DNA of 55,403 nucleotides from NCBI GenBank assembly GCA_025927595.1, contig JAICLD010000001.1, positions 1 to 55,403 of the forward strand, in the 5' to 3' direction. The notes beneath the pieces were generated by a model. It did no database searches. It was given only the letters and a program-made list of their open reading frames with translations, and was not told where the DNA came from. A program made the translations under genes and the position numbers. The stretch comes from Nocardioidaceae bacterium (GTDB lineage Bacteria; Actinomycetota; Actinomycetes; Propionibacteriales; Nocardioidaceae). Positions 15,412 to 54,632 of the stretch are shown here, in pieces; within the stretch, counting starts at the first letter, position 1, and each line of letters begins with the position of its first letter.

Positions 15412-15412
15412 G

Positions 15413-20377: not shown

Positions 20378-20392
20378 ACCGGGCCTCCGAGA

Positions 20393-20458
20393 TTCCGAAT
20401 CGTGGAAGATATATTTCACTTTCGGCGTGACTCTAGGGGCCGGGGGCTGTCCCGGCAA
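20393..20458 (-). promoter_or_regulatory. glcB promoter TTGCCG-N17-TAGAGT with downstream IclR-type operator
   Basis: -35 at 20453-20458, -10 at 20430-20435 (minus strand); palindrome TTCCGAATCGTGGAA at 20393-20407 in an AT-rich patch. Confidence 0.65.
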
Positions 20459-23716: not shown

Positions 23717-23763
23717 TAGGGTGGAGGCTTCCCACATTGTGGGGACCGTCCCACATGGTGATA
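23717..23763 (+). promoter_or_regulatory. -10 TAGGGT followed by tandem IclR-type operators
   Basis: CCCACA-T-TGTGGG palindrome at 23731-23743 and a degenerate copy TCCCACATGGTG at 23749. Confidence 0.65.
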
Positions 23764-23775
23764 GGAGCGCAGACC

Positions 23776-27327: not shown

Positions 27328-27356
27328 GCACACAGCGTATGACGCGATAGGCAATC
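27325..27356. promoter_or_regulatory. LysR T-N11-A operator overlapping leaderless -10 (TACGCT) of the LysR gene
   Basis: CATAC-N7-GCATG ending at the LysR ATG; aligns base for base with 49220-49249. Confidence 0.65.
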
Positions 27357-36814: not shown

Positions 36815-36838
36815 GGGCTTCCTTAGGGTGGGGTCGGG

Positions 36839-37728: not shown

Positions 37729-38751
37729 TTACTCCCATGAGATGCGTCGGGCTCGGGCCTGGACAGCGCTGATCGCTGCGACGTTCACGACATCGTGCAC
37801 CCCGCAGCCCCGGGAGAGGTCGTTCATCGGGGCGGCGAGCCCCTGCAGCAGCGGGCCGAACGCCTCGGCGCCGCCGAGACGCTCGACCAGCTTGTAGCCG
37901 ATGTTGCCGGAGGACAGGTCGGGGAAGACGAGGACGTTGGCTCGTCCGGCGACCGGCGACCCCGGGGCCTTCTGGTCGGCGACGGAGGCCACCAGGGCGG
38001 CGTCCGCCTGCAGCTCGCCGTCCACGGCGAGCGCGGGCGCACGTCGCCGGACCAGCTCCGTGGCCTCCCGGACCCGGTCGACCGAAGGGTGCTCGGCGCT
38101 GCCCAGCGTGCTGAACGACAGCATCGCCACCTGCGGCACCTCGCCGGTGAGCGCGGCGTAGGTGCGGGCGGTGGCGACCGCGATCTCGGCGAGCTGGGCG
38201 GGGTCGGGGGTGGGTACGACGGCGCAGTCCCCGAAGCCCAGCGAACGACCGTCCGCCGTGCGCAGCAGGAAGCTGCTCGACAGCAGTGACCCTCCGGGCT
38301 CGATCCCGATGACCCGAAGGGCGGCCCGGACCACCTCCCCGCTGCTGTGGGTGCTGCCCGCGACGGCGGCGTCCGCGGCGCCGGTGCGCACCAGCGCGGC
38401 GGCCAGCCACACCGGGTGGCACCGCCGGGCGTGCGCGACCTCCGAGGACCAGCCGGCGGCCTCGCCGATCTCCTCCAGGCACGCGCCGGCGGGTCCCTGG
38501 GCCAGCTCGTGGAGGGACAGCGTGTCAGCGGGTCCGGACCCCGACGGGGACGAGGACAGCAGCAACGGCCGCACCCCGTGGGCACCCAGCTCCGCGGCCG
38601 CCTCGCGGACCCGCGGGTCGTCGCCCTCCGCGAGCGCCACCCGAGTGCCGGCGAGGTCGCCGGACCTGAGCCGCGTCAGCCAGGGACCCGGGTCACGGGA
38701 CGGCGCCACCCCGGCGGCGGCGGCCGTCAGCCCCGTGGTGGTCTCGGTCAT
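37729..38751 (-). CDS. pta: Phosphate acetyltransferase
   Basis: [42 protein letters not shown]. Confidence 0.9.
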
Positions 38752-38760
38752 GGTGGTCGG

Positions 38761-39894
38761 TCAGGCTACCGCGCCGGGTGCGGCCAGGACCTGCGACACG
38801 GGCACGGGCTCCAGACCGTGCGCCGCCGCGACCGGCTCGTTGGTGACCCGGCCCGCGACCGTGTTGAGACCACCCGCGAGCACCGGGTCCTCCGCGAGTG
38901 CGCGGCGCCAGCCGCGGTCCGCCAGCGCCACCGCGTAGGGCAGCGTGACGTTCGTGAGCGCGTAGGTCGAGGTGTTCGGCACCGCGCCCGGCATGTTCGC
39001 CACGCAGTAGAAGACGCTGCCGTGCACCTGGTACGTCGGATCGGCGTGCGTCGTGGGCCGCGAGTCCTCGAAGCAGCCGCCCTGGTCGATCGCGATGTCG
39101 ACGAGCACGCTGCCCGGCTTCATCCTGGACACCAGCTCGTTGCTGACCAGTCGCGGTGCCAGCGCGCCCGGCACGAGGACGGCGCCGATCACGAGGTCCG
39201 CGGCCAGGACCGCCTGCTCGATCGAGTACGCGTTCGCCGCGAGCGTCTTGACCCGGCCGTTGTAGCGCCGGTCGATCGCCCGCAGCTTGTCGACGTTGGT
39301 GTCCAGCACGGTGATGTCGGCCCACGACCCGGTGGCCATGGCGATCGCGTTGCTGCCGGAGACCCCGGCGCCGAGCACGACGACGTCGGCCGGCGCGACG
39401 CCCGTGACGCCGCCCAGCAGCAGGCCACGGCCGCCCTGGGCCGCCATCAGCGCGTGCGCGCCGACCTGTGGTGCCAGGCAGCCGGCGACCTCGCTCATCG
39501 GGTAGAGCAGCGGAAGGGCGCCGTTGGGCAGCTGGACCGTCTCGTAGGCGATCGCGGTGGTGCCCGCGTCGAGCAGCGCCTGCGTGCAGGGGGCGGAGGC
39601 GGCCAGGTGCAGGTAGGTGAAGAGGGTGAGGTCCTCACGGAGCCGGTGGTACTCCTCGGCGACCGGCTCCTTCACCTTCAGCACGAGCTCGGCACCGGCC
39701 CAGACCTCGTCGGCGCTCTCCTCGATCTTCGCGCCCGCGGCGACGTACTCCTCGTCGCGGATCGAGGAGCCGATGCCGGCACCGGCCTGGACCACCACGT
39801 CGTGGCCGTGGCGCACGAGCTCGTGGACCCCGGCGGGCGTGATCGCCACCCGGTACTCGTGGTTCTTGACTTCGGTGGGGATGCCGACGTGCAT
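38761..39894 (-). CDS. ald: Alanine dehydrogenase
   Basis: [40 protein letters not shown]. Confidence 0.96.
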
Positions 39895-39957
39895 CGGGAC
39901 CTCTCTCCTTCGACGTGCTGCGTGGTGGCTGCCGGGTGCGGCGGGGTGCGGCGGGGC

Positions 39958-41328
39958 TCAGGCGCGGACGTGGGCGTCGACGGCGGACAGGACGGCGTCG
40001 ACCCCGTGCAGCAGGTCGTCGAGGACCTCGCGGTCGGCCACCAGGGGCGGCGAGAGCATCAGCAGGGTCGCGCCGCGGTCGTCGGGCCGGGTGATCAGGT
40101 TGACCTCGCGCATCGCCCGGGGCATCACCTCGCGGACCAGCTCGACGCCCTGCTCCTCGGTGAGGTCGCGGCCGGAGTCACGGTCTCCCGTGAGCTCGAT
40201 CGCGTAGAAGAACCCGGTGCCACGCCACTCCAGCACGCTGGGGTGGGCCTCGCGCAGCCGGTCCAGTCCCGCCTGGAAGTGCGGCTCGAGCGTGCGGACG
40301 TTGCCGAGGACGTCCTCGTCCCGCATGGCCGAGACGTTGGCGACCGCGACGGCGGTGGACACGGGGTGGCCGCCCCAGGTCGAGCCATGGGTGAACACGC
40401 CGGCCCGTGAGGAGGCCATCAGCCCCTGCGCGAGCGGCTCCCGGATCAGCACGCCGCCCAGCGGCGCGTAGCCGGACGTCGAGCCCTTGGCGAACGTGAT
40501 CAGGTCGGGCACGACGCCGTACTTGGCGCTGCCGAACCAGTCGCCGAGGCGGCCGAACGCGCAGATCACCTCGTCGGCGACCAGCAGGATCCCGTAGCGG
40601 TCGCAGATCGAGCGGAGCTCGGCCCAGTAGCCGTCGGGCGGGACCAGGGCGCCCCGGGAGTTCTGCACCGGCTCGGCGAAGACGGCCGCGAAGGTGTCCG
40701 GGCCCTCTCGCTCGATGACCTCGACCATCGCGCGCAGGCTCGGCAGGTCCGCGGCGGTGCCGCCCTCGGGTACCCGCTCCCCCAGCGTGTGCGGGACGTG
40801 GAAGACCCCGGGCATCAGCGGCCCGAACGGCGCCTTGAACTTCGGGATCCCGGTCACGGCCAGGGCCCCGAGCGTGGTGCCGTGGTAGGACATGTCGCGC
40901 GAGATGATCTTGGTGCGCTGCGGCTCGCCCTGGCTGAGGTGGTACTGCCGGGCGAACTTGATCGCGGACTCGACCGCCTCCGAGCCCGAGTTCACGAAGA
41001 AGACCGTGTCGAGGTCCCCGGGGGCCAGGCCGCTGATCAGCGTGGCGGCCTCGACAGAGGCGGGGTGGGCCGCGGACCAGTTCGTCCAGTAGGCCAGCTG
41101 CTCCATCTGCTTGGTGGCCGCGGCCGGGACGTCCGAGCGGCCGTGCCCCATGTTCACGCAGAACAGCCCGGCGAGCCCGTCGAGGAACCGGGTGCCCCGG
41201 TCGTCGTACAGGTAGCACCCCTCGCCGCGCACGATCACGGGGAGCTCGTCGGCGCTCCACACCGCCCCGCGGGTGAAGTGCGGGAACAGGTGCTCCCGCG
41301 CACGGGCCCTCACGTCTGACTGGTTCAT
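39958..41328 (-). CDS. tpa: Class III aminotransferase, probable taurine:pyruvate aminotransferase
   Basis: GEGCY, SGSEAVE, YHGTT, ADEVICAFGR, FAKG; first gene of the ald-pta-tauCAB operon (substrate by context). Confidence 0.8.
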   Translation of the reverse strand: MNQSDVRARAREHLFPHFTRGAVWSADELPVIVRGEGCYLYDDRGTRFLDGLAGLFCVNMGHGRSDVPAAATKQMEQLAYWTNWSAAHPASVEAATLISGLAPGDLDTVFFVNSGSEAVESAIKFARQYHLSQGEPQRTKIISRDMSYHGTTLGALAVTGIPKFKAPFGPLMPGVFHVPHTLGERVPEGGTAADLPSLRAMVEVIEREGPDTFAAVFAEPVQNSRGALVPPDGYWAELRSICDRYGILLVADEVICAFGRLGDWFGSAKYGVVPDLITFAKGSTSGYAPLGGVLIREPLAQGLMASSRAGVFTHGSTWGGHPVSTAVAVANVSAMRDEDVLGNVRTLEPHFQAGLDRLREAHPSVLEWRGTGFFYAIELTGDRDSGRDLTEEQGVELVREVMPRAMREVNLITRPDDRGATLLMLSPPLVADREVLDDLLHGVDAVLSAVDAHVRA

Positions 41329-41364
41329 CGCCGACCTCCTTCGCTCGACGTCCCGGGGGACGTG

Positions 41365-41430
41365 GGTCCACTGTGGGGGACAGGACTGGTCTGATGAAGG
41401 TCCAGATCGGAACGAGATTAGTGGTACCAG
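41365..41430. promoter_or_regulatory. Candidate TauR (MocR) binding repeats upstream of tpa
   Basis: Minus-strand CTGGTAC (41424-41430), CTGGAC (41400-41405), TGGACC (41365-41370) and inverted CTGGTC (41386-41391). Confidence 0.5.
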
Positions 41431-41440
41431 AGCCGGAGCG

Positions 41441-42928
41441 TCACCCGAGCTGCCGGCGGACCAGACCGGCGAGGATCCGCACCCCGGGCACGATGGCCTC
41501 CGGGGTGATCGCGGCGAACCCGAGCCGCAGGTTCTCGCGGTGCCGCTCCGGGTCGGTGAAGTAGATGTCGCCGCGCTCCACCACGACCCCCTGACGCAGG
41601 GCGGCGGCGGCCAGCTCGACGCAGTCGAGCCCCGGTGGACCGGGCAGCCAGATGCTGACGCCGCCGGGTGGAGCCTCCACCTGCCAGGGGAGCTCGGCCT
41701 GGAGCGCGTCGCGCAGCGTGGCCCACCGCTGCGCGAGCTGGGTACGTCGTCGGCGGACCGTGCGGTGGTACTGGCCGTTCGCGATCAGCAGCGCCATGGC
41801 CCGCTGCGTGTGCCCGGAGGCGTGCCGGATCCGGTAGCGGCGCAGCCGGCGCAGCTCCTCGACGAGCTCCGGCGCGGCGACCAGGTAGCCGAGCCGCAGC
41901 CCCGGGGCCAGGAACTTCGAGAACGTCCCGAGGTAGACGACGCGCTCGCTGTCCGGCAGGGCCTTGAGGGCGGGCGTGGGGCTGCCGTGGTAGCGGAACT
42001 CGCTGTCGTAGTCGTCCTCGACCAGCAGCAGGTCGTGGGTGGCGGCCAGGGCCAGCAGCCGGCGCCGGCGGGCGATCGACAACGTCACGTTGGTGGGGCT
42101 GTGATGGCTCGGGGTCAGGTGCACCAGGGACAGCCCGGCGGGGTCCTCCGGCGGCACCATCCCAGCACCGTCGACCTCGATCGGCCGCAGCGTGGCGCCC
42201 GCGCGCAGGAAGATCCGGCGCGCGTCGAGGTAGCCGGGCTCCTCCACGCCGACCACGGAGCCGGGTCGCACCAGCGCGTGCGCCAGCAGGTCCAGGCCCT
42301 GCTGGGCGCCCAGCGTCACCAGGACCTGGGCGGGGTCGGCCTCGATCCCGCGGGCCGGCAGCACGTGCCGGCAGAGCTCCTCGACCAGCATCGGGTCGTC
42401 CTCGTCCACGCCGTCGCGCAGGCTGTCGTGGAGGTGGGCCGGCTCGAGCGCCTCCCGCAGCGCCCGCAGCCAGGGCAGCCGGGGGAACGAGGAGACGTCG
42501 ACCTGGCCGGCCACGAAGGGGAAGGGGTAGGACTGCCAGTCGCGCACCTTGGCGATCTCCGGCAGGCCGGCGTCGGGCAGCGCCTGAAGATGCCGCGACC
42601 AGTCCACCGGCTCGGCCACGGCGGCCGCGGGCAGGCCGCGCCGCAGCTCGCGGAGCATGTCCCGGTTGACGAACAGCCCGCTTCGCGGTCGCGCCTCCAC
42701 GAACCCCTCGGACTCGAGCTCGAGGTAGGCGGTGTTGACGGTGTTGCGCGAGACGCCGAGCTCGCGGGCGAGCTCCCGCGAGGACGGCAGCGGACGCATC
42801 GGGTCCAGCGCTCCGGCGGCGATCTCGTGCTCGAGGGCCTCCCGCAGCTGGCGGTAGAGCGGCTTGTCGGTGCCGCGCTCGATCGAGAGCCGGGTGCGCG
42901 CCACCGGCGCAGGGTAGCGAGCGCTCAC
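41441..42928 (-). CDS. tauR: MocR/GabR-family PLP-dependent regulator (TauR-like)
   Basis: GntR HTH LPSSRELARELGVSRNTV, GAQQGL, TPSHHSPT, EDDYDSEF, GTFSK; directly upstream of tpa. Confidence 0.82.
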   Translation of the reverse strand: MSARYPAPVARTRLSIERGTDKPLYRQLREALEHEIAAGALDPMRPLPSSRELARELGVSRNTVNTAYLELESEGFVEARPRSGLFVNRDMLRELRRGLPAAAVAEPVDWSRHLQALPDAGLPEIAKVRDWQSYPFPFVAGQVDVSSFPRLPWLRALREALEPAHLHDSLRDGVDEDDPMLVEELCRHVLPARGIEADPAQVLVTLGAQQGLDLLAHALVRPGSVVGVEEPGYLDARRIFLRAGATLRPIEVDGAGMVPPEDPAGLSLVHLTPSHHSPTNVTLSIARRRRLLALAATHDLLLVEDDYDSEFRYHGSPTPALKALPDSERVVYLGTFSKFLAPGLRLGYLVAAPELVEELRRLRRYRIRHASGHTQRAMALLIANGQYHRTVRRRRTQLAQRWATLRDALQAELPWQVEAPPGGVSIWLPGPPGLDCVELAAAALRQGVVVERGDIYFTDPERHRENLRLGFAAITPEAIVPGVRILAGLVRRQLG

Positions 42929-43239
42929 GGCGCGGTCAGCAGGGCGGCCAGCTCGGTCACCGCGATCGCCACGGTGACCAGCGTCAGGGCGGCCGGCGCG
43001 CGTCCGCCCCGCGGTCGGTCCCGGGCCTTGATGTCGGCGTCGTGGCGGTAGCGCCCCCGGCTCTCGAGGAACACCCATCCGGCGGCGGGCAGCGCGACGA
43101 CCACGCACAGCAGCGCCAGCGGCCCCAGCCGGTCGACGGTCAGCCGGGACACCGCTGCGGACCCGGCCAGCAGCGACAGGGCGGTCCGCTGCCAGGCCAG
43201 GGCGGTCCGCTCGTTCTGGGCGCCCTCCGGCTCGGGCAC
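42925..43239 (-). CDS. DUF202 (YidG-like) small membrane protein
   Basis: QNERTALAWQRT, three TM segments. Confidence 0.85.
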   Translation of the reverse strand: MPEPEGAQNERTALAWQRTALSLLAGSAAVSRLTVDRLGPLALLCVVVALPAAGWVFLESRGRYRHDADIKARDRPRGGRAPAALTLVTVAIAVTELAALLTAP

Positions 43240-43243
43240 GGCG

Positions 43244-43603
43244 CTAGAACCCCACCACGAGGATCGCGAGGGCCGCGACCACCACCGCTGCTGTCAGCAG
43301 CGCGCTCAACGTCGAGGACGGCAGCGGCTCGGAGTGCCGCATCGCCCGCTCCGCGCGTGCCCAGCGCAGCCAGGACAGCACCGCGCACACCAGTCCCAGC
43401 GCCACCAGCAGTGCGGCGAGCCCCTCCTGCAGCGCGCCGGGGATCGACAGGTCGATGGCGTCCAGCGCCACGCCCCCGGCCAGCAGGGCCAGCGCGGTCC
43501 TGATCCAGGCCAGGAAGGTGCGCTCGTTGGCGAAGCTGAACCGGTAGTCCGGCTCGGCGCCCGAGCCGTAGACCCAGCCGGGCCAGCGCCTGCCGCCGCT
43601 CAC
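43244..43603 (-). CDS. DUF202 (YidH-like) small membrane protein
   Basis: EPDYRFSFANERTFLAWIRT, three TM segments. Confidence 0.9.
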   Translation of the reverse strand: MSGGRRWPGWVYGSGAEPDYRFSFANERTFLAWIRTALALLAGGVALDAIDLSIPGALQEGLAALLVALGLVCAVLSWLRWARAERAMRHSEPLPSSTLSALLTAAVVVAALAILVVGF

Positions 43604-43608
43604 CCCGC

Positions 43609-44706
43609 TCAGCCCACGAACAGCGGCAGGGACCGGCCCACGAGGCTGCGGCGTACGACGGGCAGGGCGGCGGCGACCCCGGCGAGGGCCCGTGCCGCGG
43701 GCGCGTCCGGCTCGGACAGCAGCAGCGGGACCCCGTCGTCCCCCGCGCGGCACAGGGCCTCGTCCAGCGGCACCCGGCCCAGGACCGGCGCACCCAGCGT
43801 CTCCGCGAGCCGGTCGCCGCCGCCGGACCCGAACCCGCCGCCGGTCATGTTCTCGACCACGCCGGCGACCGGCATCCGGGCGTCCAGGGCCATCCGCCCG
43901 ACCCGGGCCGCCACCTGCTCCGCGGCCCGCTGGGGGGTCGTGACGACCAGCATCGCCGCATCCGGCAACAGCTCGAGGACGGTGAGCGGGACGTCACCGG
44001 TGCCGGGGGGCAGGTCCACCAGCAGCACGTCGAGCTCGCCCCAGCAGACGTCGTCGAGGAACTGCTCGAGGGCCTTCTGCAGCATGGGCCCGCGCCACAC
44101 CACCGGCTGCTCCTCGTCGACGAAGAAGCCGATCGACATCAGCCGGACCCCGTGGGTCTGCACCGGCAGCATCACGCCCTTGACCGCGACCGGCTGCTCG
44201 CGGACCCCGAACAGCTGCGGGACCGAGTAGCCCCACACGTCGGCGTCCAGGACGCCGACCCGCTGCCCCGAGCGGGCCAGCGCCACGGCGAGGTTCGCGG
44301 TGACCGAGGACTTGCCGACACCACCCTTGCCGGAGGCGACGGCGTAGACCCGTGCGGAGGAGCCGAGCGCGCCGGGACGCCGGTTGCCGGCCCGCAGCCG
44401 GCCGGCCAGCGAGGCCCTCCCGGTCTCCTCGAGCGTCGAGGTCCGCACCTCGACGTCACGGACCCCGTCGACGCCGAGGGCGGCGAGCTCCACGAGGCCG
44501 CGGAGCGGGTCCGCGGGCGACGCCTCGCGGACCAGGGTCCGGACCGTGACCGCGACCCGGCCGCCGCGGGCGGTGACGTCGCCGACGAGGCCCAGCTCGC
44601 CGAGCGGACGGTCGAGCGCCGGATGCACGACCCCGGCCACGGCGGCACGGACGGCGTCCCCCAGGCCGCTGCGCGACGCCCGGGCGAGCGGCAGGGTCCG
44701 GCTCAC
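43609..44706 (-). CDS. Mrp/NBP35 Fe-S cluster carrier ATPase
   Basis: N-terminal DUF59-like segment, SGKGGVGKS, DADVWGYS, WRGPM, DLPPGTGD, VVENM. Confidence 0.9.
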   Translation of the reverse strand: MSRTLPLARASRSGLGDAVRAAVAGVVHPALDRPLGELGLVGDVTARGGRVAVTVRTLVREASPADPLRGLVELAALGVDGVRDVEVRTSTLEETGRASLAGRLRAGNRRPGALGSSARVYAVASGKGGVGKSSVTANLAVALARSGQRVGVLDADVWGYSVPQLFGVREQPVAVKGVMLPVQTHGVRLMSIGFFVDEEQPVVWRGPMLQKALEQFLDDVCWGELDVLLVDLPPGTGDVPLTVLELLPDAAMLVVTTPQRAAEQVAARVGRMALDARMPVAGVVENMTGGGFGSGGGDRLAETLGAPVLGRVPLDEALCRAGDDGVPLLLSEPDAPAARALAGVAAALPVVRRSLVGRSLPLFVG

Positions 44707-47576
44707 GGCGCCACCTTGAAGGCCTTGCGCTTGGGCTTCACCGGACGCATCAGGAACTCCGGGCGGCGGCGGCCGTCGGCGCTCGGGCCGGGACGGGTCC
44801 GGGCCAGCCACTCGTGGAACGCCTCGCGGGACTTGCGGATGTCGACCTCGATGTCGCCGTAGCGGTCGCCGGGCAGCGCCTTGGCCAGCCGGACCCGCTG
44901 CAGCCAGCAGTGCATCCCCGACCACGGGTCCGGCTGGACCGGGAAGGTGAGGTTCTGGTGCACGCCGGGATCCTCCCAGTAGATCCGCGAGCTGTCGGGG
45001 TCGGCGCTGTCGAACGGTGCCACCCCCTGCGCGTAGCGCATCCGGTAGATGCCGTCCTCGCTGCGGTCGAGGTCCACCCGTCCCGTGGCCCACCGGCTGC
45101 CGTCGCCCTCGTGCAGCCGCCACCGGCCCATGTGGTGGCTCATCGCGATCACCCCGGGGCGGATGCCCTGGTGCGCCCAGATCCGGGCCACGAAGTAGCC
45201 GATCCGGGTGGTCACCCGCACGAGGTCGTCGGTGGCGAGCCCGAGCCGCTCAGCGTCGTCGGCGTTGACCCAGATCGGGTGGGTGTTGCTGATCTCGTTG
45301 AGGTACTTCGCGTTAGCCGACCGGGTGTGGATCAGGGTGGGCAGCCGGAAGGTCGGGACCAGCACCATCTCGCCGGCCTCGGTGTCCATGGTGCGGTGCG
45401 AGACGTGGGACTCGATGTAGCCGGGGGTGGCGTGCTCCGGCCAGCCGAAGTCCGCCATCGACTGCGAGTACAGCTCGAGCCTGCGGCTCGGGGTCAGCCA
45501 GCCGGCCACCGCGGAGCCGTCGTCGAGCCGGACCCCGACGGCGCCCGCCTCCCCGACCAGGGGCGGGGTCGACTCGTCGGTCGTCGGCTTGCGGAGCACG
45601 CCGAGCTCGTCCGGCTCGGTGTCGGCGAGCTCGGCCTCGGTGAGCGGCCGCTCGTCCTGACGGTAGACGTCGCGGGCGATCTCCACGACGCCGTACTTGC
45701 GCATGTACTCCAGTGGCTCCATCCCCTGCGCGGCCGCCTTCTCCGGCAGGCCGGGGACCCGGTTCTCGAAGACCCATCGGTAGTACTCCTCGACGGTGAC
45801 CTTCTCCCCCGGCCGGTACGGCGACTCGAAGTACCGGCGGATCCCCAGCGAGCCGTCCGGGTCGATGCGCCAGGACAGCTCGAACCAGAACTCGTTCTCC
45901 TCCCACACCGAGCCCGGGTTCGCGTCGCGGGTGTCTCCGACGGGCATCCCGAGCTTGTCCATGGCGACCCGCCGGACGGGCTGCCGGAAGCCCAGCCAGC
46001 GGGCCGCGTGGGTCTCGTATGACTGGGTGTCGTGCCGCTCGGTGGAGTGCCCCATGGGAAGCACGTAGTCCGCGAAGGTGGCGGTCTCCGACCAGGTGGG
46101 GGTCAGCGCAACGTGCAGGCCGACCTTGTCACGGTCGGTGAGCGCCTCGACCCAGGTGAACCCGTCGGGGTTCGTCCACACCGGGTTGTAGACGCGGGAG
46201 AAGTAGACGTCCAGCCTGCCGCGGCCGTCGTTGAGCAGGTGCGGCAGCAGGATCGACATCTCGTTCGTGGACAGCGGGTACTCCGGGGGCCACAGCAGCT
46301 CGTTCCAGCTCTCGTGCCCCTCGGGCACGTCGAAGCCGTGCGCGATGAACTTGTCCCAGCCGTTGGGGCTGGTGCCGCCGGGGGTGCCGACGCTGCCGGT
46401 GAGCACGTTGAGGAAGAACAGCGACCGGGCGACCTGCCAGCCGCCGAGGTTGCCCGCCGCCGCGGACCGCCAGATGTGCGCGGACAGCGCCGACCCTGCC
46501 GTCGCGACGGTCTCGGCGAGCTCCCGCAGCTTCTCGACCGGGACCCGGGCCTCCTCGGCGGCGTACTCGAAGGTGAAGCCCGCGTAGTCCTCGGTCAGCA
46601 GGGCCAGGAAGGTGTCGAAGTCGCGCTCGGCGCCGGGGTGCAGCCGCTCCAGGTACGTCGACCAGTTGACCCAGCGACGCAGGTAGTCCCGGTCCACCTG
46701 ACCGGTCCGGAGCAGGTGCGCCGCCACGGCGAGCAGGATCGCCGCCTCGCTCCCGGGCCACGGGGCGATCCACAGGTCGGCGTGCGAGGCGGTGTTGGAC
46801 ATCCGCGGGTCCAGCACGACGAGCTTGGCGTTGCCCTCGTTCTTGGCCTCCATGATCCGCTGCGCGTGCGGGTTGAAGTAGTGCCCCGACTCCAGGTGGG
46901 AGGACAGCAGCAGCACGACCTTCGCGTTCGCGTAGTCCGGCGAGGGACGGTCGTAGCCGCCCCACAGGGTGTAGCCGAGGCGGGCTCCCGCGGAGCAGAT
47001 GTTCGTGTGGCTGTTGTGGCCGTCGACGCCCCAGGCCAGCAGGAACCGCTCGGCGAAGCCGTCCTCGCCGGGGCGGCCGACGTGGTAGACCACCTCGTCG
47101 CGGCGGTCCTCGACGATCGCCCTGCGGATCCGGCCGGCGATCTCGTCGAGCGCGTCGTCCCAGGTGCACTCCTCCCACTGGCCCGACCCGCGCTCACCGG
47201 TGCGGCGTAGCGGGTGCAGGATCCGCTCGGGGTCGTTGAGCTGGTTGATCGTGGCCGGGCCCTTCGCGCAGTTGCGGCCGCGCGAGCCCGGATGGGCCGG
47301 GTTGCCCTCCACCTTCGTGATGCTCAGGTCGTCCTTGGCGACGTAGGCGAGCAGCCCGCACGCCGACTCGCAGTTGAAGCACGTGGTGGGGATCAGCATG
47401 AACTCGCGGGGGACCTTGCGGGGGTGTGCCTTCGCGTCGTACGCGACGTGGTGGTCCCAGGTCTCGGGGGGAGGGAAGTTCGCGAGGTTCTCGTGCCGCC
47501 GGGCGCCCGGCAGCACCGGCGGGGCCGGGAGCCCGCCGGCGGCCGGGGTGGTGCGGGGCTCTTCGGTGGTGGTCAC
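44703..47576 (-). CDS. Mo-bis-PGD oxidoreductase catalytic subunit (Psr/Phs/Soe-like, Cys ligand, no Tat signal)
   Basis: CFNCESAC...CAKG FS0 motif, RILHPLRR, HTNICS, DPRMSNTA, SETATFADYVLP, C-terminal dinucleotide-binding domain. Confidence 0.88.
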   Translation of the reverse strand: MTTTEEPRTTPAAGGLPAPPVLPGARRHENLANFPPPETWDHHVAYDAKAHPRKVPREFMLIPTTCFNCESACGLLAYVAKDDLSITKVEGNPAHPGSRGRNCAKGPATINQLNDPERILHPLRRTGERGSGQWEECTWDDALDEIAGRIRRAIVEDRRDEVVYHVGRPGEDGFAERFLLAWGVDGHNSHTNICSAGARLGYTLWGGYDRPSPDYANAKVVLLLSSHLESGHYFNPHAQRIMEAKNEGNAKLVVLDPRMSNTASHADLWIAPWPGSEAAILLAVAAHLLRTGQVDRDYLRRWVNWSTYLERLHPGAERDFDTFLALLTEDYAGFTFEYAAEEARVPVEKLRELAETVATAGSALSAHIWRSAAAGNLGGWQVARSLFFLNVLTGSVGTPGGTSPNGWDKFIAHGFDVPEGHESWNELLWPPEYPLSTNEMSILLPHLLNDGRGRLDVYFSRVYNPVWTNPDGFTWVEALTDRDKVGLHVALTPTWSETATFADYVLPMGHSTERHDTQSYETHAARWLGFRQPVRRVAMDKLGMPVGDTRDANPGSVWEENEFWFELSWRIDPDGSLGIRRYFESPYRPGEKVTVEEYYRWVFENRVPGLPEKAAAQGMEPLEYMRKYGVVEIARDVYRQDERPLTEAELADTEPDELGVLRKPTTDESTPPLVGEAGAVGVRLDDGSAVAGWLTPSRRLELYSQSMADFGWPEHATPGYIESHVSHRTMDTEAGEMVLVPTFRLPTLIHTRSANAKYLNEISNTHPIWVNADDAERLGLATDDLVRVTTRIGYFVARIWAHQGIRPGVIAMSHHMGRWRLHEGDGSRWATGRVDLDRSEDGIYRMRYAQGVAPFDSADPDSSRIYWEDPGVHQNLTFPVQPDPWSGMHCWLQRVRLAKALPGDRYGDIEVDIRKSREAFHEWLARTRPGPSADGRRRPEFLMRPVKPKRKAFKVAP

Positions 47577-47591
47577 TCCGGCTCCCTCGAG

Positions 47592-47639
47592 GTCAGGACG
47601 CGTCAGGACGGGTCAGGCGGTGCGGGTGGTGTCAGGACA
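47592..47639. repeat. Short direct repeats GTCAGG(AC), 10-bp period
   Basis: Copies start at 47592, 47602, 47612 and 47631 (the last contains the upstream stop codon). Confidence 0.6.
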
Positions 47640-49146
47640 GCGGGACGTCCTGGCCGGCACGGACGAACACCGACTCGTAGGCCAGCAGCGCCGGCTGCAC
47701 CAGGAGGCCGGCCACCAGGGCCGCCCAGCCCGCGGAGCCGGTCCAGGCCAGCGCGGCCAGGACCACGGACAGGGCGACGGGGACCACCGACCCGAGCCAG
47801 AACAGCCGCGCGTAGCGGCCCCGGACGATGATCCGCGCGGCCACCGCGGCACCGCGCGACCGGTGCCCACCACCGAGGTCCAGGGCGGTGACGACGAGGT
47901 GCAGGACCGCACCGACGAGCAGCGCCCGGGCCGCGAGTGCGACGGCGGAGGAGCTCTGACCGGCGAGGACCAGCGCGACCGCCATCGCGCCGGACCCGAC
48001 CATCAGCGCCTGCACCAGCAGGTGCGGCAGCAGCCAGCGCGACTGCCACAGGTCGCGGCCCTCCGCCTGGGCGAACAGGAACGCGGTGTAGCCGGCCACC
48101 AGCGCGCACGGGACCAGCACGAGCCAGGCCAGCCAGCCCAGCACGCCGTCGAGGCCCAGCACCCCCGCCACGAACCAGGCGGTCGTCGCCAGCCCGAACA
48201 GCAGCAGGCAGTAGCCGCCGAGGACCAGCCAGGAGGTGTGGTGGGGCTTGGTGAACAGGTAGTAGAACCGGTCCGGGCGCTTGAGGTCCCACACCAGCAG
48301 CACGCCGGTCGCCGCAGCGCCGACCGCGGCGAGGACCGGGGCCACCACGTCGCCGACCGCCCCGAGGGAGACACCGAGGATGACGGCCAGCGCGGCCAGG
48401 AACAGCGCGCCGCCGGCGAGGCCCTTGGCCCACAGGTAGGTGACCACCCGCCAGCCCCAGGGCCGCGGGTGCGAGGTGTTGAGCGTGGTGTGCGCGGTGG
48501 GGTCGTCGCCCTCGTAGTCGTGCGAGGTCCGCAGCCGCTGCTCGTCGGGGCGGGCCCACAGGTACGTGTCGCGCACGGGCGCCGCGAGCGGGTCGAGCAC
48601 GGCTCGCTCGGCGCCGAGGTAGAACACGTTGGGGCCGGTGTTCTGGTCCGGCGCCCGCACCGCCGTGGGGTTCGCGGCGACGAGCCGGGAGATGCCGGTG
48701 GTCTCGTCGTCCACGTCGCCGACCCAGATCGAGTGCGTCGGGCAGACCGTCACGCAGGCCGGCTCCAGGCCCTCGTCGACCCGGTGGGCGCAGAAGTTGC
48801 ACTTCGCGGCGGTGTGCGTCTCGGCGTCGATGTAGATCGCGTCGTAGGGGCAGGCCTGCATGCACGACTTGCAGCCGATGCAGCGCTCGCTGTCGAAGTC
48901 GACGATGCCGTCGTCGCGCTTGAACAGCGCGGTGGTCGGGCAGATCTTCACGCACGGCGCGTCCGTGCAGTGGTTGCAGCGCATCACGCCGAAGTCGCGG
49001 GTGGAGTCCGGGAACGTCCCGGAGTCGACGTACTTGACCCAGGTGCGGAACTGGTCGAGCGGGATGTCGTGCTCGGTCTTGCAGGCGACCGTGCAGGCAT
49101 GGCACCCGATGCAGGTGCGCTGGTCGATCGCGAAGCCGTACTGCAC
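47632..49146 (-). CDS. Fused four-cluster ferredoxin (NrfC/DmsB) and NrfD/PsrC membrane anchor
   Basis: CIGCHACTVAC, CNHCTDAPC, CIGCKSCMQACP, KCNFC..PAC..CP, then WGW..YLW, DLKRPDRF, SW and 8 TM; GTG 49146 with GGAAGG RBS. Confidence 0.9.
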   Translation of the reverse strand: MQYGFAIDQRTCIGCHACTVACKTEHDIPLDQFRTWVKYVDSGTFPDSTRDFGVMRCNHCTDAPCVKICPTTALFKRDDGIVDFDSERCIGCKSCMQACPYDAIYIDAETHTAAKCNFCAHRVDEGLEPACVTVCPTHSIWVGDVDDETTGISRLVAANPTAVRAPDQNTGPNVFYLGAERAVLDPLAAPVRDTYLWARPDEQRLRTSHDYEGDDPTAHTTLNTSHPRPWGWRVVTYLWAKGLAGGALFLAALAVILGVSLGAVGDVVAPVLAAVGAAATGVLLVWDLKRPDRFYYLFTKPHHTSWLVLGGYCLLLFGLATTAWFVAGVLGLDGVLGWLAWLVLVPCALVAGYTAFLFAQAEGRDLWQSRWLLPHLLVQALMVGSGAMAVALVLAGQSSSAVALAARALLVGAVLHLVVTALDLGGGHRSRGAAVAARIIVRGRYARLFWLGSVVPVALSVVLAALAWTGSAGWAALVAGLLVQPALLAYESVFVRAGQDVPLS

Positions 49147-49219: not shown

Positions 49220-49249
49220 TTGGTTATGCCGTCATAATCTACGGTTATG
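49220..49249. promoter_or_regulatory. LysR operator CATAA-N7-TTATG overlapping leaderless -10 (TAATCT)
   Basis: Palindrome at 49233-49249 ending at the LysR ATG; second GGTTATG 21 bp upstream. Confidence 0.7.
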
Positions 49250-50152
49250 AGGACGCAGCGTTGGGCCAGCGACCTCGGGCCGCTGCGGCTGCTCGTGGCG
49301 GTCGGCGAGCACGGCAGCATCACGGAGGCCGCGCGCCTGGAGGGCGTCAGCCAGCCTGCCGCCAGCAAGCAGATCGCGGCGCTGGAGCGGGCCATGTCGC
49401 TGCCCTTGCTGCGCCGCGCCCCCAGCGGCTCCACCCTGACCGCCGAGGGCGAGGTGGTCGCGAGCTGGGCCGGGCGGGTGCTCGCCACCGTCGAGCAGAT
49501 GCGCGGCGCCGTGGAGTCGATGCGCGTGCATGCGGACCCCGACCTGGTCGTCGCGGCGAGCATGACGGTGGCGGAGCACCTCGCCCCGGCCTGGCTCTCC
49601 ACGCTGCGGGCGACCCGCCCGGACGTGCACGTGGGCCTGCGGGTGACGAACTCCCACGACGTGCAGGAGCTCGTCGTCCGGGGGGAGGTGGACCTCGGCT
49701 TCGTCGAGACAGCGACCCTGGACCCCCGCGTGGAGAGCCGCCGGCTGATGCGGGACCGGCTGGCGGTCGTGGTGGCGCCGACCCACGCCTGGGCCGCGAG
49801 GCGGCGGTCGCTGGGTGCCGAGGACCTCGCCCGCACCCCGCTGATCGTGCGGGAGCACGGTTCCGGCACCCGGGACACGCTCGACCGCGTGCTGCGTGCG
49901 AACCCGGCCGACCCGCTGCTGGTCCTCGGGTCGAACGAGGCGGTGAAGGGCGCGGTCAAGGCGGGGGTCGGGGCCGCGGTCCTCAGCGTCCTCGCGGTCG
50001 GCGAGGACGTCCGTCGTGGGCAGCTGGTGGAGGTCGCCGTGGACGGGCTGGACCTGCACCGGCCGATCAGCGCGGTGTGGCGACGCGGTCAGCGGCTCGG
50101 GGACGCCTCCCGCACGCTGCTCCGCACGGCCGCGTCCGGCTCTCCGGCCTGA
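49247..50152 (+). CDS. LysR-family regulator, YeiE/CysL-like
   Basis: GSITEAA..GVSQPAAS, ASMTVAEH, DLGFVE, REHGSGTR; divergent from the Mo operon. Confidence 0.9.
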   Translation: MRTQRWASDLGPLRLLVAVGEHGSITEAARLEGVSQPAASKQIAALERAMSLPLLRRAPSGSTLTAEGEVVASWAGRVLATVEQMRGAVESMRVHADPDLVVAASMTVAEHLAPAWLSTLRATRPDVHVGLRVTNSHDVQELVVRGEVDLGFVETATLDPRVESRRLMRDRLAVVVAPTHAWAARRRSLGAEDLARTPLIVREHGSGTRDTLDRVLRANPADPLLVLGSNEAVKGAVKAGVGAAVLSVLAVGEDVRRGQLVEVAVDGLDLHRPISAVWRRGQRLGDASRTLLRTAASGSPA

Positions 50153-51018
50153 GCACCGGCCGCCCGCAGCGCGTCGCCGATCTGGCTGGGGACGTCGACG
50201 ACCGTCGCGCCGGCCTCGGTGAGCGCGGCGACCTTGGACTCGCCACTGCCGCGCCCGTCGGTGACGATCGCGCCCGCGTGCCCCATCCGCTTGCCCGGTG
50301 GAGCGGTCCGCCCGGCGATGTAGGCGACGACGGGCTTGGTCATCGTCGCGACGTACGCCGCCGCCTCCTCCTCCATGACCCCGCCGATCTCGCCGACGAG
50401 CACGACGGCATGGGTGCGCTCGTCCGCGTCGAGGGTGCGTACGGCGTCGAGCGTGGTGGTGCCCAGGATCGGGTCACCGCCGATGCCGACGAAGGCGGAC
50501 TGCCCGAAGCCGGCGGTGACGAGGTTCAGGCAGACGAGCGTGCCGAGGCTGCCGCTGCGCGAGACCACCCCGACGTTGCCCGGACGGAAGATGTTGGGGG
50601 CGAAGCCCGGCATGATGCCCACGGAGGTCTCCCCCGGCACCACGAGCCCGGCGGTGTTGGGTCCCAGCACCTGTGCGCCGCTCTCCCGGGCCCGCGCGAG
50701 CACCTCCATCACGTCCTGGGCGGGCACGTGCTCGGCGAGGAAGACCACCTTGCGCACGCCCGCGGAGACGGCGTCGAGCGCCGCCTCCCGGGCGGCCATC
50801 GGAGGCACGAACAGCACCGTGGCGTCGACCTGGTGCCGCGCCGCCGCCTCGGCGACGCTGTCGTAGACCCGCACGCCCGCGACCTCGCGGCCGCCCTTGC
50901 CCGGGCTGACACCGGCGACCACGCGGGTGCCGCACTCGGCCATCCGCTGCGACCAGTAGGACCCCTGCCGTCCGGTGATCCCCTGGACGATGACCGACTC
51001 ACCGCTCCTGACCAGCAT
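50089..51018 (-). CDS. SucD-like CoA ligase alpha subunit, probable sulfoacetate-CoA ligase
   Basis: VQGITGRQG, GVSPGKGG, SRSGSL, GIGGD, GEIGG, RMGHAGA phospho-His. Confidence 0.82.
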   Translation of the reverse strand: MLVRSGESVIVQGITGRQGSYWSQRMAECGTRVVAGVSPGKGGREVAGVRVYDSVAEAAARHQVDATVLFVPPMAAREAALDAVSAGVRKVVFLAEHVPAQDVMEVLARARESGAQVLGPNTAGLVVPGETSVGIMPGFAPNIFRPGNVGVVSRSGSLGTLVCLNLVTAGFGQSAFVGIGGDPILGTTTLDAVRTLDADERTHAVVLVGEIGGVMEEEAAAYVATMTKPVVAYIAGRTAPPGKRMGHAGAIVTDGRGSGESKVAALTEAGATVVDVPSQIGDALRAAGAQAGEPDAAVRSSVREASPSR

Positions 51019-52205
51019 CAGCGCACCTCCGCGCTCACCGGGGCCGTCGAGGGCGCCGGAGCGGCCGAGGCGGCCGCTGCGACGGCCGCGCGGACCGCGT
51101 CGTCCATCAGGTCGTAGGGCTCGACGCCCAGCCGCTCCCGCACGAGCCGCACGGCCTCCTCCTCGCCGGTGCCGTGGATCGTGAAGAACACCGGGACGTC
51201 GGGGCGCAGCTCCTCGAGGGCCGCGACGACGCCCTCCGCCATCACGTCGGTGCGGGCGAACGCGCCGCAGAAGTTCACGAGCAGGCTCTTCACCCGCGGG
51301 TTGTCGAGCACCAGCGACAGGGCGGGCGTGGCCTTGGTGTAGGCGTCGCCACCGATCTCGAGGAAGTTGGCCGCCCGGCCGCCGTAGTGGTGCACGACGT
51401 CGAGGGTCGTCATGGTGAGCCCGGCCCCGTTGGCGAGCACCCCGACGTCGCCGTCCAGCTCGATGAGCTGCAGCCCGAGCTCGCGGCCCCGCCGCTCGAG
51501 CTCGGTCAGCTGCTCCTGCGCCGACTCGGGCGCCGCGGCCACGACGGCCTCCTGGCGCGGCTCGGAGCCAGGGTCGATCGAGATCTTCGCGTCCAGCGCG
51601 ACCACGTCGCCGGCGCGGGTCAGCACCAGTGGGTTCACCTCGGCGAGGTCGGCATCGCTGTCGCGGTAGACCCCGTACAGCCGCACCAGCGCGTCGGCCA
51701 CCGCCCCACGGGCGGCGTCTGGGAGGTCGGTGCCGGCCACGACCTCCAACGCCTCCTCGGCGTCCAGACCGCGGGTGATGTCGACGGGGTGCCGCCGCAC
51801 CAGCTCCGGCGTCGCCCGGTTGACCTCCTCGATGTCCATGCCGCCCGAGGTGGAGAAGAGCACCAGTGGCCCCTTGCTCACCGGGTCGTTGAGCACGGCG
51901 GCGTACAGCTCGCGCTCGATGTCCGCGCACTCCTCCACCAGGACCTCGTGGACGGGGTAGCCGTCGACGCTGAGGGCGAGCAGCCGCTCCGCCACCTCCG
52001 CCGCCTCGTCGGCGGAGTCCGCGAAGAGCACGGCACCGGACTTGCCGCGCTTGCCGGTCGGCACCTGGGCCTTGACGACGACCCGCGAGCCGATCCGCGA
52101 GGCGACGTCGCGGGCCTCCTCCGCGCTGGAGGCCACACCGCTGACGGGCACGCGGAGGCCGCCCCGCTCCAGCAGCTGCTTGCCGTGGTGCTCGAGGAGC
52201 TTCAC
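51018..52205 (-). CDS. SucC-like CoA ligase beta subunit, probable sulfoacetate-CoA ligase
   Basis: KLLEHHGK, VKAQV..GKRGKSG, GGMDIE, EVNPL, LDAK, NGAGL; NFCGAF replaces SucC NIFGGI. Confidence 0.82.
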   Translation of the reverse strand: MKLLEHHGKQLLERGGLRVPVSGVASSAEEARDVASRIGSRVVVKAQVPTGKRGKSGAVLFADSADEAAEVAERLLALSVDGYPVHEVLVEECADIERELYAAVLNDPVSKGPLVLFSTSGGMDIEEVNRATPELVRRHPVDITRGLDAEEALEVVAGTDLPDAARGAVADALVRLYGVYRDSDADLAEVNPLVLTRAGDVVALDAKISIDPGSEPRQEAVVAAAPESAQEQLTELERRGRELGLQLIELDGDVGVLANGAGLTMTTLDVVHHYGGRAANFLEIGGDAYTKATPALSLVLDNPRVKSLLVNFCGAFARTDVMAEGVVAALEELRPDVPVFFTIHGTGEEEAVRLVRERLGVEPYDLMDDAVRAAVAAAASAAPAPSTAPVSAEVR

Positions 52206-53635
52206 CGGCCGTACCTCTCGAAGTAGCTGCCCCACAGGTCGTCCTCGGAGGGCTCCCTCGCGGGGATGACGCGGGCCAGCCGCGTGATGTTGAGGAAGTG
52301 CCGGAACGAGAGGTTGTCGGAGATGCTGTTCCCGGCCCAGGTGCCGGCGCCCATCGTCAGCGTGAACCCGAGGCCGTTGTCGAAGCCGCCGCCGGTGCCG
52401 AAGCAGTGCGCCTGGTTGACGAGCACCCGGGCGACCCGCAGACGCTCCGCCACCCGCCGGGCGTGCTCCTCGGTGGCCGTGTGGATCCCGCAGGAGTGGC
52501 CGGCGCCCTGGTGGTCCAGCAGCGCCTGGATCCGCTCGAGGCCCTCGTCGAGCGTCTGGAACCGGTAGACCGCCGCGACGACCGACAGCTTCTCCCCGCT
52601 GAACGGGTGGTCGGGGCCGACGCCGTCCTCCTCCACCAGGAAGAACGCGGCGTTCCGGGCCGCCGGGGAGTCGAGCCCGGCGAGAGCGGCGATCTTCTCG
52701 GGCGACTGGGCGGTCACCGCGCCGCTGAGGTGGCCGTCCACCCACATCACGTCCTGCAGCCGGCGCTTCTCCGCCGCAGTCAGGAGGTAGCCGCCCTGGT
52801 CCGCCAGCGCCGCGAGGGCCCGGTCGTAGACGTCGGCGTGCACGTGCAGGGAGTTCTCCGAGGAGCAGCTGGTGGCGTAGTCGAAGGTCTTGCTGAGCCG
52901 GATCTTCTCGGCCGCGTCCTCGACGTCGGCGTCCGCGTCGATGATGACGGGCGCGTTCCCGACCCCGACGCCGATCGCCGGGGTGCCCGAGCTGTAGGCG
53001 GCCTGGACGTTCTTCTGGGAGCCGGTCACGACGACGAAGTCCGCCTGGCGCATGAGCTCGTAGGTGAGGGCCTTGGTGGGGTGGTCGACGTACTGCACGA
53101 GGTCGCGGGGGGCGCCGACCTTGTCGAGCTGCTCGTGGATGTAGCGCACCAGCAGCCCGCAGGTCGAGGCGCCCTTGGGGGACGGCGACAGCACGATCGC
53201 GTTGCGCCCCTTGAGCGCCATCATCGTCTTGTTCGCCGGCGTGGCAGCGGGATTCGTGGAGGGGCACACCGCCGCGACGACGCCCATCGGCTTGGCGTAC
53301 TCGGTGAGGCCCAGCTCCGGGTCCTCGGAGATCACGCCGACCGAGGGTGCCCCGGTGAGGTCGCGCAGCGTCCCCATCGTCTTGCGCCGGTTCTTCACGA
53401 TCTTGTCCTCGACCCGGCCCAGCCCGGTGTCCTGCACCGACAGCTCGGCCAGGATCCGTGCGCGCTCCGGCTCGGCGACGGCCCAGGCGACGCCGGCGAC
53501 GACGGCGTCGACCTGCTCCTGTCCGAACTCCTCGAAGACCCGCTGCGCCTCGCGGGCGCGCCGGACGAGCTCGGCGATCGTGCCGACCACGTCCTCGTCG
53601 TCCCGCTGGGTCTGGTCCGTGGGCTGTCCGGGCAT
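52202..53635 (-). CDS. sauS: CoA-acylating aldehyde dehydrogenase, probable sulfoacetaldehyde dehydrogenase
   Basis: PSTNP, AYSSGTPAIGVGVGN, SKTFDYATSCSSENS, EKLS, GHSCGIH, NSISDNL; GAAGGAG RBS. Confidence 0.78.
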   Translation of the reverse strand: MPGQPTDQTQRDDEDVVGTIAELVRRAREAQRVFEEFGQEQVDAVVAGVAWAVAEPERARILAELSVQDTGLGRVEDKIVKNRRKTMGTLRDLTGAPSVGVISEDPELGLTEYAKPMGVVAAVCPSTNPAATPANKTMMALKGRNAIVLSPSPKGASTCGLLVRYIHEQLDKVGAPRDLVQYVDHPTKALTYELMRQADFVVVTGSQKNVQAAYSSGTPAIGVGVGNAPVIIDADADVEDAAEKIRLSKTFDYATSCSSENSLHVHADVYDRALAALADQGGYLLTAAEKRRLQDVMWVDGHLSGAVTAQSPEKIAALAGLDSPAARNAAFFLVEEDGVGPDHPFSGEKLSVVAAVYRFQTLDEGLERIQALLDHQGAGHSCGIHTATEEHARRVAERLRVARVLVNQAHCFGTGGGFDNGLGFTLTMGAGTWAGNSISDNLSFRHFLNITRLARVIPAREPSEDDLWGSYFERYGR

Positions 53636-53689
53636 CCCGCTCACTCCTTCGGTCGTGGTGGGGACGAAGCCGCCGACCCACGACACCTA

Positions 53690-53770: not shown

Positions 53771-54565
53771 TCAGATCCGGTAGTCCGAGGGCAGGATCGC
53801 CGCGATCTCGGCGGCGGCGTCGACCACGAGCGCGCCCAGCTGCGGCAGCCGCTCCTCCGGGAGCCGCACGTCGGGCCCCTGCACGGCCACCGCCGCCGTC
53901 GCCAGCCCCGAGGACGGCTCGAGGACGGGGGCGGCGACGCCGCACACCCCGGCGATCCGCTCCCCGCGGTTGACGCTGTAGCCGCGGTCGCGGACCGTCT
54001 CCAGCTCCCGACCGAGGGCGCGCGCCGAGGTGATCGTCCTCGACGTCATCGCGGCGAGCTCCCCGAGCCGCTCCAGCTCCGCGGCCGGCTCCCGGGAGTA
54101 GGCCAGCAGCGCCTTGCCGGTGCTCGTGCAGTACAGCGGGATCCGGGCGCCGACGGGCTGGGTGAACCGCAGCGGCTGCTCGGACTCGACCCGCAGCACC
54201 ACCAGGCCGTGGTCGCCGTCGCGGACGACGAGGTTCGCCGACTCCCCCGTCGCCGCGCGGAGCCGCTCCAGGACCGGCGCGACGGCCGCGAAGCCGAGGT
54301 TGCGCTCGGCGGCCAGGCCCAGCAGCAGCGCCTCCCGGCCCAGGCGGTACCGGTCGGTCTCGGGGTTCTGGGAGACGTATCCCTCCGCGACCAGAGCCTT
54401 GAGGATCCGGTGCACGGTGCTGGTGTGCAGCGACAGCGAGCGCGCCATCTCCGAGACACCCACGTCCGTCGTGGCCCGGCGCAGCACGCCGAGGACCGAC
54501 AGCGCACGCACGACGGTCTGGGTGCCGAGCACCCGCTCGTCCTCGGTCCGCGGGGACGTCGTCAC
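53771..54565 (-). CDS. IclR-family regulator (SauR-like)
   Basis: GTQTVVRAL, STVHRIL, GESANL, CTSTGKA; GGAGG RBS before GTG 54565 (alternative start 54589). Confidence 0.88.
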   Translation of the reverse strand: MTTSPRTEDERVLGTQTVVRALSVLGVLRRATTDVGVSEMARSLSLHTSTVHRILKALVAEGYVSQNPETDRYRLGREALLLGLAAERNLGFAAVAPVLERLRAATGESANLVVRDGDHGLVVLRVESEQPLRFTQPVGARIPLYCTSTGKALLAYSREPAAELERLGELAAMTSRTITSARALGRELETVRDRGYSVNRGERIAGVCGVAAPVLEPSSGLATAAVAVQGPDVRLPEERLPQLGALVVDAAAEIAAILPSDYRI

Positions 54566-54583
54566 GAGGCTCTCCTCCGTCGC

Positions 54584-54609
54584 TTCCACATGTTGGAAGG
54601 AGCAGTCTA
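54584..54609 (-). promoter_or_regulatory. IclR autoregulatory operator and -10 TAGACT
   Basis: TTCCACATGTTGGAA at 54584-54598, one mismatch from the reverse complement of the 53690 site; -10 at 54604-54609. Confidence 0.72.
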
Positions 54610-54632
54610 GGTCCCGACCGGCCCATCGTGGC

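Follow-up and report, generated by a model that had tools for sequence, protein, structure and literature searches.

How does an actinobacterium that degrades organosulfonates deal with the sulfite set free in its own cytoplasm? The question is raised by a 55,403-nt stretch of DNA from a Nocardioidaceae bacterium (GenBank assembly GCA_025927595.1, contig JAICLD010000001.1, positions 1 to 55,403; the whole stretch is hereafter called the window), in which an operon for a molybdenum bis-pyranopterin guanine dinucleotide (Mo-bisPGD) enzyme lies among sulfonate degradation genes. A first-pass annotation had read this operon as a candidate new, actinobacterial type of cytoplasmic sulfite dehydrogenase. 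We propose, with fair confidence, that its product is a membrane-bound molybdoenzyme of two subunits, belonging to the Unk lineage, which by prediction faces the cytoplasm and is likely to act as a sulfite:quinone oxidoreductase. Support for this role is indirect but convergent; we infer the substrate, direction, quinone and regulation.

On the minus strand, the operon runs from a fused Fe-S/NrfD subunit through the Mo-bisPGD catalytic subunit and an Mrp ATPase to two DUF202 genes. Molybdop_Fe4S4, Molybdopterin and Molydop_binding domains were found by Pfam in the catalytic subunit of 957 amino acids (aa). Its FS0 cysteines (C66/C69/C73/C103, CFNCESAC) and C194 (HTNICS) are conserved at ≥90% in a 70-sequence alignment, and C194, which we take to be the Mo ligand, pairs in alignment with the Cys found within the SLCT/SVCA motifs in PsrA (2vpw) and ArrA (6cz7). 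A twin-arginine translocation (Tat) consensus is missing from its N-terminus. A genome scan gave 531 confirmed stretches, the best 80 of which were analyzed as related loci; among the 72 of these that carry the CFNC motif, none has a Tat consensus upstream of it (0/72). The partner is one fused polypeptide of 504 aa in which 16 Cys precede eight predicted NrfD-type transmembrane helices. Because its loops carry 15 Lys and Arg residues on the Fe-S side and 0 on the opposite side, a cytoplasmic Fe-S domain with N-in topology is predicted. The Mrp and Mo genes share 4 bp. Because the genome holds another Mrp, 44% identical, on contig C226, the operon's Mrp is counted as an extra copy. In all these respects (Tat-less FS0 subunit with a Cys ligand, Fe-S/NrfD partner, dedicated Mrp and, by prediction, cytoplasmic orientation), the first-pass annotation was borne out. 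The fused subunit recurs in 74 and Mrp in 51 of the 80 related loci. DUF202 genes accompany the complex in 25/80, in sulfonate and persulfide contexts alike, and their products are candidates for a small anion exporter.

At the active site, R168, H190 and C194 correspond to Arg, His and Cys residues in ArrA, ArxA and SoeA-type proteins, which in ArrA bind the oxyanion. The window enzyme shares its GR and HxxxC motifs with SoeA-type proteins and ArxA; in PhsA the Arg is absent, and in the Psr-like reference both are. The fold of the complex, like its topology, is predicted, with an AlphaFold model of the Mo subunit at a predicted local distance difference test score of 91.5. Within the family, a subgroup of three proteins (P0124, P0126 and P0147; support 100/96) has neither the Mo-ligand Cys motif nor the active-site Arg, and these are possibly non-catalytic forms.

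As the first-pass annotation had described, the operon is embedded between taurine and sulfoacetate modules: SauS and Xsc exceed their model cut-offs, and SucCD-like, Ald, Pta and TauABC-like genes lie nearby. The SucCD-like pair is likely the sulfoacetate-CoA ligase, a function read from its position beside SauS. The xsc gene lies ~13 kb from the operon on its downstream side, accompanied by a LysR-YeiH pair. The product set free by Xsc and SuyAB is sulfite rather than sulfane sulfur. Divergent from the operon is a LysR gene whose top PDB matches include YeiE. According to the parts of PMC8931317 considered here, eight residues of YeiE hold the sulfite, and one of them, Glu145, keeps sulfate out. 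We scored the pocket residues S96, S97, N126, S127, E145, R191, S195 and T197; seven of the eight, including the Glu145 equivalent, are kept in the window regulator, which has Met at S97. Seven, again including this Glu, are kept in the window paralogue beside yeiH and in 11/11 LysRs near related operons. The NCBIfam YeiE score is 147 against a cut-off of 480, and a YeiE-type pocket is also common to CysL-type sulfur-assimilation regulators. These residues suggest that the regulator is of the sulfite-sensor type. The purely sulfite-releasing context of the window, together with a regulator of this putative type, favors sulfite over sulfane sulfur as the substrate.

Neighborhoods of related loci extend this pattern. 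A sulfite-releasing module lies within 10 kb in 46/80 loci (45 of the 69 loci of ≥12 kb): persulfide dioxygenase (PDO)-type in 35, Xsc/SauS in 6 and SuyAB-like in 5. The PDO label denotes metallo-β-lactamase (MBL)-rhodanese fusions, assigned by Pfam domains and the metal-binding motif, with no NCBIfam match; the SuyB-like protein shares 59% identity with UxaA in the hpsNO cluster of Cupriavidus pinatubonensis. On a plasmid of the haloarchaeon Halomarina sp. PSR21, sauS-adh-xsc-pta is followed by genes for the fused FeS-NrfD subunit, the Mo subunit and Mrp within ~17 kb (L154:10757-27700), and its SauS and Xsc also exceed their cut-offs. In Amycolatopsis alkalitolerans (L010), an sHdr-like cluster (TusA, Fe-S protein, HdrB-like and HdrA-like; 16411-19414) lies downstream of the complex. 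Two haloarchaea have rhodanese and TauE near it, and the Thermomicrobium and N. halophilum loci show no clear sulfite source. A Natrinema acyl-CoA dehydrogenase, considered as a sulfite-releasing desulfinase, was dropped at 208 bits against a cut-off of 600. Because the three contexts plus sHdr need five changes on a 74-row tree, recruitment to sulfite-releasing pathways is repeated but not frequent. Two further genes recur near the operon: a GntR-UTRA regulator in 28/80 loci (e.g. L009:197-988), mostly in persulfide-type contexts, and a heliorhodopsin gene within ~10 kb in 6/80 (e.g. L023:1096-1887).

Co-occurrence with Xsc was examined in genome samples. Among 400 Actinomycetota genomes, a sample that excludes the window's own genome, the Mo subunit was found in 38 (including the unpublished G120), Xsc in 4 and both in 2. 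An order-level sample (Xsc 0/300, Mo subunit 5/300) was uninformative. Among 180 genomes of the Pseudonocardiaceae, the family of Saccharopolyspora oryzae (centre genome excluded; the unpublished G706 is among those with Xsc only), Xsc occurs in 19, the Mo subunit in 15 and both in 8, in 5 of which the Mo gene is within 8 kb of xsc. The Mo subunit is thus present in 8/19 Xsc-bearing versus 7/161 other Pseudonocardiaceae (Fisher p = 1.4e-5, overstated since kin are not independent). It is enriched about tenfold with Xsc, yet is not required.

Is the enzyme a SoeABC, the known cytoplasmic sulfite oxidizer? We built a maximum-likelihood tree of 55 proteins with 12 SoeA-type references, metagenomic proteins drawn from a set of 38 chosen by SoeA motifs (Allochromatium vinosum SoeA is not among them). 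References were labelled ArxA or Psr-like from their operon structure and general knowledge of these families, and a Sulfurovum homologue was excluded for its interrupted frame. Because the search for ArrA references came up empty (0/201 genomes, with no control match either), the tree holds ArxA and no ArrA, SreA or FdnG. The window protein groups at 100/100 with proteins from R. jostii RHA1, Thermomicrobium, haloarchaea and other actinobacteria, and Azoarcus-type proteins join this clade as an outgroup at 100/100. The 12 SoeA-type proteins form a separate clade, and union of the two was rejected by the approximately unbiased test (p = 0.018; 24-row subset with 5 SoeA-type references). The phylogeny thereby upholds the proposed separation from SoeA. 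No SoeA-type gene was found in the 82%-complete host genome. A tblastn reading that the operon encodes the genome's sole Mo-bisPGD enzyme was overturned by a Pfam search, which gave three more matches to the molybdopterin family; we interpret these as NarG-, NuoG- and Fdh-like.

The molybdopterin and FS0 domains, tetracubane subunit and membrane anchor place the complex in the DMSO reductase (Mo-bisPGD)/CISM family. Its B-before-A gene order, lack of Tat, ~60-kDa B subunit and lack of a separate C gene are those of the Tat-less Unk subgroup. It does not nest in the SoeA clade and shares with SoeABC a predicted Tat-less, cytoplasmic facing. It misses the PhsA cut-off, has no Tat and has BA instead of ABC order, unlike PsrA/PhsA; it misses the ArrA cut-off (93 against 1600), and no ars gene family was seen among the recurrent neighbor clusters scanned from the 80 loci, where sulfur genes dominate; and it misses the TtrA cut-off (108 against 1750) and falls outside the TtrA clade, represented by one long-branch reference. 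By these comparisons the Mo subunit falls outside SoeABC, Psr/Phs, Ttr and Arr, and it belongs to the Unk lineage.

Contrary to the first-pass annotation, the clade is not new: Duval et al. 2008 (PMC2500031) named it 'Unk' and, in the parts considered here, left its function unassigned and set apart a subgroup that lacks Tat and a C gene and whose B subunit is of 60 kDa. Unk proteins listed there include those of Rhodococcus RHA1, Nocardioides JS614, Rubrobacter, Chloroflexus, Roseiflexus and five Chlorobi. The window complex resembles the subgroup in BA order, absence of Tat, oversized 60-kDa tetracubane subunit, absence of a C gene, Cys ligand and Arr kinship. It differs in that the anchor, read as lacking in those passages, is fused to the Fe-S subunit, and in that a sulfite role is suggested here by neighboring genes, where those passages give no function. 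The R. jostii RHA1 plasmid protein is 75.6% identical to the window Mo subunit; we infer from organism and architecture, not from an accession match, that it is YP_709030 of Duval 2008. Nor is the clade confined to actinobacteria, since haloarchaea, Thermomicrobium and Dormibacterota have homologues as well; cultured carriers include R. jostii RHA1, Saccharopolyspora oryzae, Nocardioides caldifontis and Halomarina PSR21. PSRLC3 of green sulfur bacteria, compared here by its published description, is likewise an uncharacterized CISM complex for which sulfite oxidation was inferred (PMC9324843 and PMC6338057, in the parts considered). It is probably related to the window clade, Duval's list holding five Chlorobi proteins; the window differs in its context of organosulfonate breakdown.

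SoeABC of Allochromatium vinosum and Aquifex aeolicus is alike in combining a Tat-less Mo-bisPGD subunit, 4x[4Fe-4S] and an NrfD anchor on the cytoplasmic side, in its GR and HxxxC motifs, and in its location beside xsc/sauS; SoeA-type genes occupy the same slot elsewhere (Xsc beside 2/38 and SauS beside 3/38 SoeA-type loci). It differs in having three subunits, where the window complex has two through a B-C fusion, in BA order. The five best SoeA-type matches are 24-32% identical to the window protein over partial alignments, and Mrp adjoins none of the 38 SoeA-type loci. ArrA/ArxA (6cz7) and PsrA/PhsA (2vpw) are the closest solved folds and share the Cys at the ligand position; they are 22-24% identical in structural alignment and are Tat-exported, periplasm-facing enzymes. 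No such family is listed in the passages of Wells et al. 2023 (PMC10100899) covered here. A literature search that left out most subscription journals found no biochemical study of the clade, and an Atlas search returned only generic molybdopterin clusters.

Several observations weigh against sulfite as the substrate. A sulfane or thiosulfate substrate also fits, because the commonest partner genes of the complex handle sulfane sulfur: besides the PDO-type genes counted above, TusA/DsrE occur in 13, rhodanese-YgaP in 11 and Sqr-like genes in 6 of the 80 loci, and in R. jostii RHA1, where MBL hydrolases are nearby, dsrE-tusA lies directly upstream in the same direction. PsrA is the top PDB sequence match of the Mo subunit, and by VIA-align it ties with ArrA (PsrA, Z 29.8, root-mean-square deviation 2.8, 684 aligned; ArrA, Z 29.4, 3.0 and 712). 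No NCBIfam model reaches its cut-off, and the best curated one is PhsA (169 bits against 694). Furthermore, 29/80 loci have no counted sulfur gene, with many singleton neighbors lying outside the scan, and few independent events may underlie the sulfonate link since ~3 changes on the tree suffice. The complex could accordingly be a cytoplasmic Psr/Phs/Ttr-like oxidoreductase acting on sulfane sulfur, TusA/DsrE-bound persulfide, thiosulfate or tetrathionate instead of free sulfite. We regard this as unlikely: the window carries Xsc, which like SuyAB yields sulfite; PDO-type queries had no match in the host genome; the neighboring LysR appears to be of the sulfite-binding type; and the active-site Arg/His pattern is unlike that of PhsA and the Psr-like reference.

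Other observations question whether the complex is the main sulfite sink. The claim that no SorAB-type gene is present holds within the window; in the genome, two membrane-anchored sulfite-oxidase-family (PF00174) genes lie on contigs C29 and C102. With two TauE exporters in the window, these make up a possible export-then-oxidize route. The complex is missing in 11/19 Xsc-bearing Pseudonocardiaceae and in 2 of the 4 Xsc genomes of the phylum sample, and no Mo subunit gene is annotated within 20 kb of the xsc/sau cluster of Rhodococcus DK176. All five tested Xsc-positive genomes without the complex carry 4-5 PF00174 matches each; in 10 of the 11 Xsc-positive genomes without it, no SoeA-type gene was found at 1e-30, in a search that used no positive-control genome. 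The complex might then be accessory, a backup or passenger, with sulfite exported by TauE/YeiH (one YeiH is in the window) and oxidized outside, or oxidized by the PF00174 proteins. This we judge improbable. PF00174 genes are common (8/14 control genomes) and here sit on contigs other than that of the taurine cluster, while the Mo operon is itself part of that cluster and is found next to xsc again in actinobacteria and in a haloarchaeon. The notion of an actinobacterial sulfite dehydrogenase thus stands in part: neighborhoods, Xsc co-occurrence and the LysR pocket make sulfite the most likely substrate, but, given the Xsc-bearing genomes without it, the complex is not 'the' actinobacterial enzyme.

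Conversion of another oxyanion (arsenite/arsenate or selenium species), as in Arr/Arx relatives, is very doubtful. The 55-protein tree places ArxA as sister group of the wider Unk clade (88/90), a placement unresolved in the 24-row subset, ArrA is the best Foldseek match of the model (E 3e-41), and an Azoarcus outgroup member adjoins ars genes; the sulfur-dominated, ars-free recurrent neighbors of the 80 loci speak against it. A formate:quinone oxidoreductase, as some homologues named 'formate dehydrogenase' in source records and the name 'Fqo', tentatively given in PMC8076601 to an NrfD group of Chlorobi and Actinobacteria, would have it, is the most remote candidate, the protein being far from Fdh on the tree (Fdh model 137 against 666) and Fqo being described, in the parts of that source considered, as having three subunits.

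For a sulfite:quinone oxidoreductase, we propose the following plausible mechanism. First, the taurine and sulfoacetate routes would meet at sulfoacetaldehyde, from which Xsc would free sulfite inside the cytoplasm. The YeiE-like LysR would sense it and switch the operon on. At the Cys-ligated Mo center, sulfite would then accept an oxo group and become sulfate. Two electrons would travel by way of FS0 and the fused subunit's four clusters to the quinone site of NrfD and on to menaquinone. Mrp would provide the Fe-S clusters; sulfate or surplus sulfite would leave the cell through TauE/YeiH. Menaquinone is the quinone type of actinobacteria.

Further genes of the window are listed with the operon in Table 1. 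A CobS/CobT-like AAA+/VWA pair in the taurine cluster, which recurs in another related locus (L002), is possibly a chaperone for some cluster enzyme. A gene for an iron-containing alcohol dehydrogenase next to one for an MFS transporter, with similar genes in L058 and L154, possibly encodes an isethionate dehydrogenase. Glycolate/lactate oxidation genes and malate synthase G adjoin the sulfonate cluster.

Table 1 Features of the window discussed in the text
Feature	Position	Strand	Basis or remark
Glycolate/lactate oxidation genes (permease, GlcDEF-like) and malate synthase G	12193-20440	-	
Iron-containing alcohol dehydrogenase	23737-25047	+	
YeiE-like LysR	26392..27333	-	divergent from YeiH gene
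YeiH-family transporter	27399..28436	+	divergent from YeiE-like LysR
Xsc, sulfoacetaldehyde acetyltransferase (sulfite-releasing step)	28642..30462	-	NCBIfam 1074 bits, cut-off 676
CobS/CobT-like AAA+/VWA pair	31407-34090	+	below cobaltochelatase cut-offs
Second TauE-family exporter	34095..34829	+	
TauABC-like ABC transporter	34959..37609	-	highest-scoring models are for taurine ABC, under their cut-offs
Taurine module: Pta, Ald, class III aminotransferase (likely Tpa), MocR/TauR-like regulator	37729..42904	-	
DUF202 membrane protein, second of pair	42925..43239	-	
DUF202 membrane protein, first of pair	43244..43603	-	
Mrp/NBP35 Fe-S carrier ATPase, 365 aa, extra copy	43609..44706	-	
Mo-bisPGD catalytic subunit, 957 aa, Unk clade, without Tat peptide	44703..47576	-	Pfam, alignment, tree
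Fused 4x[4Fe-4S] ferredoxin and 8-helix NrfD membrane anchor, 504 aa	47632..49146	-	predicted N-in topology
LysR regulator, divergent, YeiE/CysL-like	49247..50152	+	100 bp from operon start
SucC/SucD-like ADP-forming CoA ligase pair	50089..52235	-	below succinate-CoA ligase cut-offs
SauS, acylating sulfoacetaldehyde dehydrogenase	52202..53686	-	NCBIfam 793 bits, cut-off 600
IclR regulator and TauE-family exporter	53771..55361	-	TauE frame open at contig end

Both the clade and the idea of sulfite oxidation have precedent, and neither is new here. Taking the evidence together, we lean toward a broader view, somewhat less firmly than toward the sulfite role in the window: the Tat-less Unk complex would be a second, independently evolved cytoplasmic sulfite:quinone oxidoreductase, a common sink plugged onto Xsc, SuyAB, persulfide dioxygenase or sHdr in actinobacteria, Chloroflexota, haloarchaea and probably Chlorobi, placed here under a sulfite-sensing LysR and missed by current gene-family models. 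If true, this would give a function to a molybdoenzyme clade unassigned since 2008 and would explain cytoplasmic sulfite disposal and electron gain in many organisms without SoeABC. The family is common in Actinomycetota (38/400 sampled genomes) and yet brings no NCBIfam model to its cut-off, so sulfite oxidation in soils is likely underestimated in surveys of the sulfur cycle.

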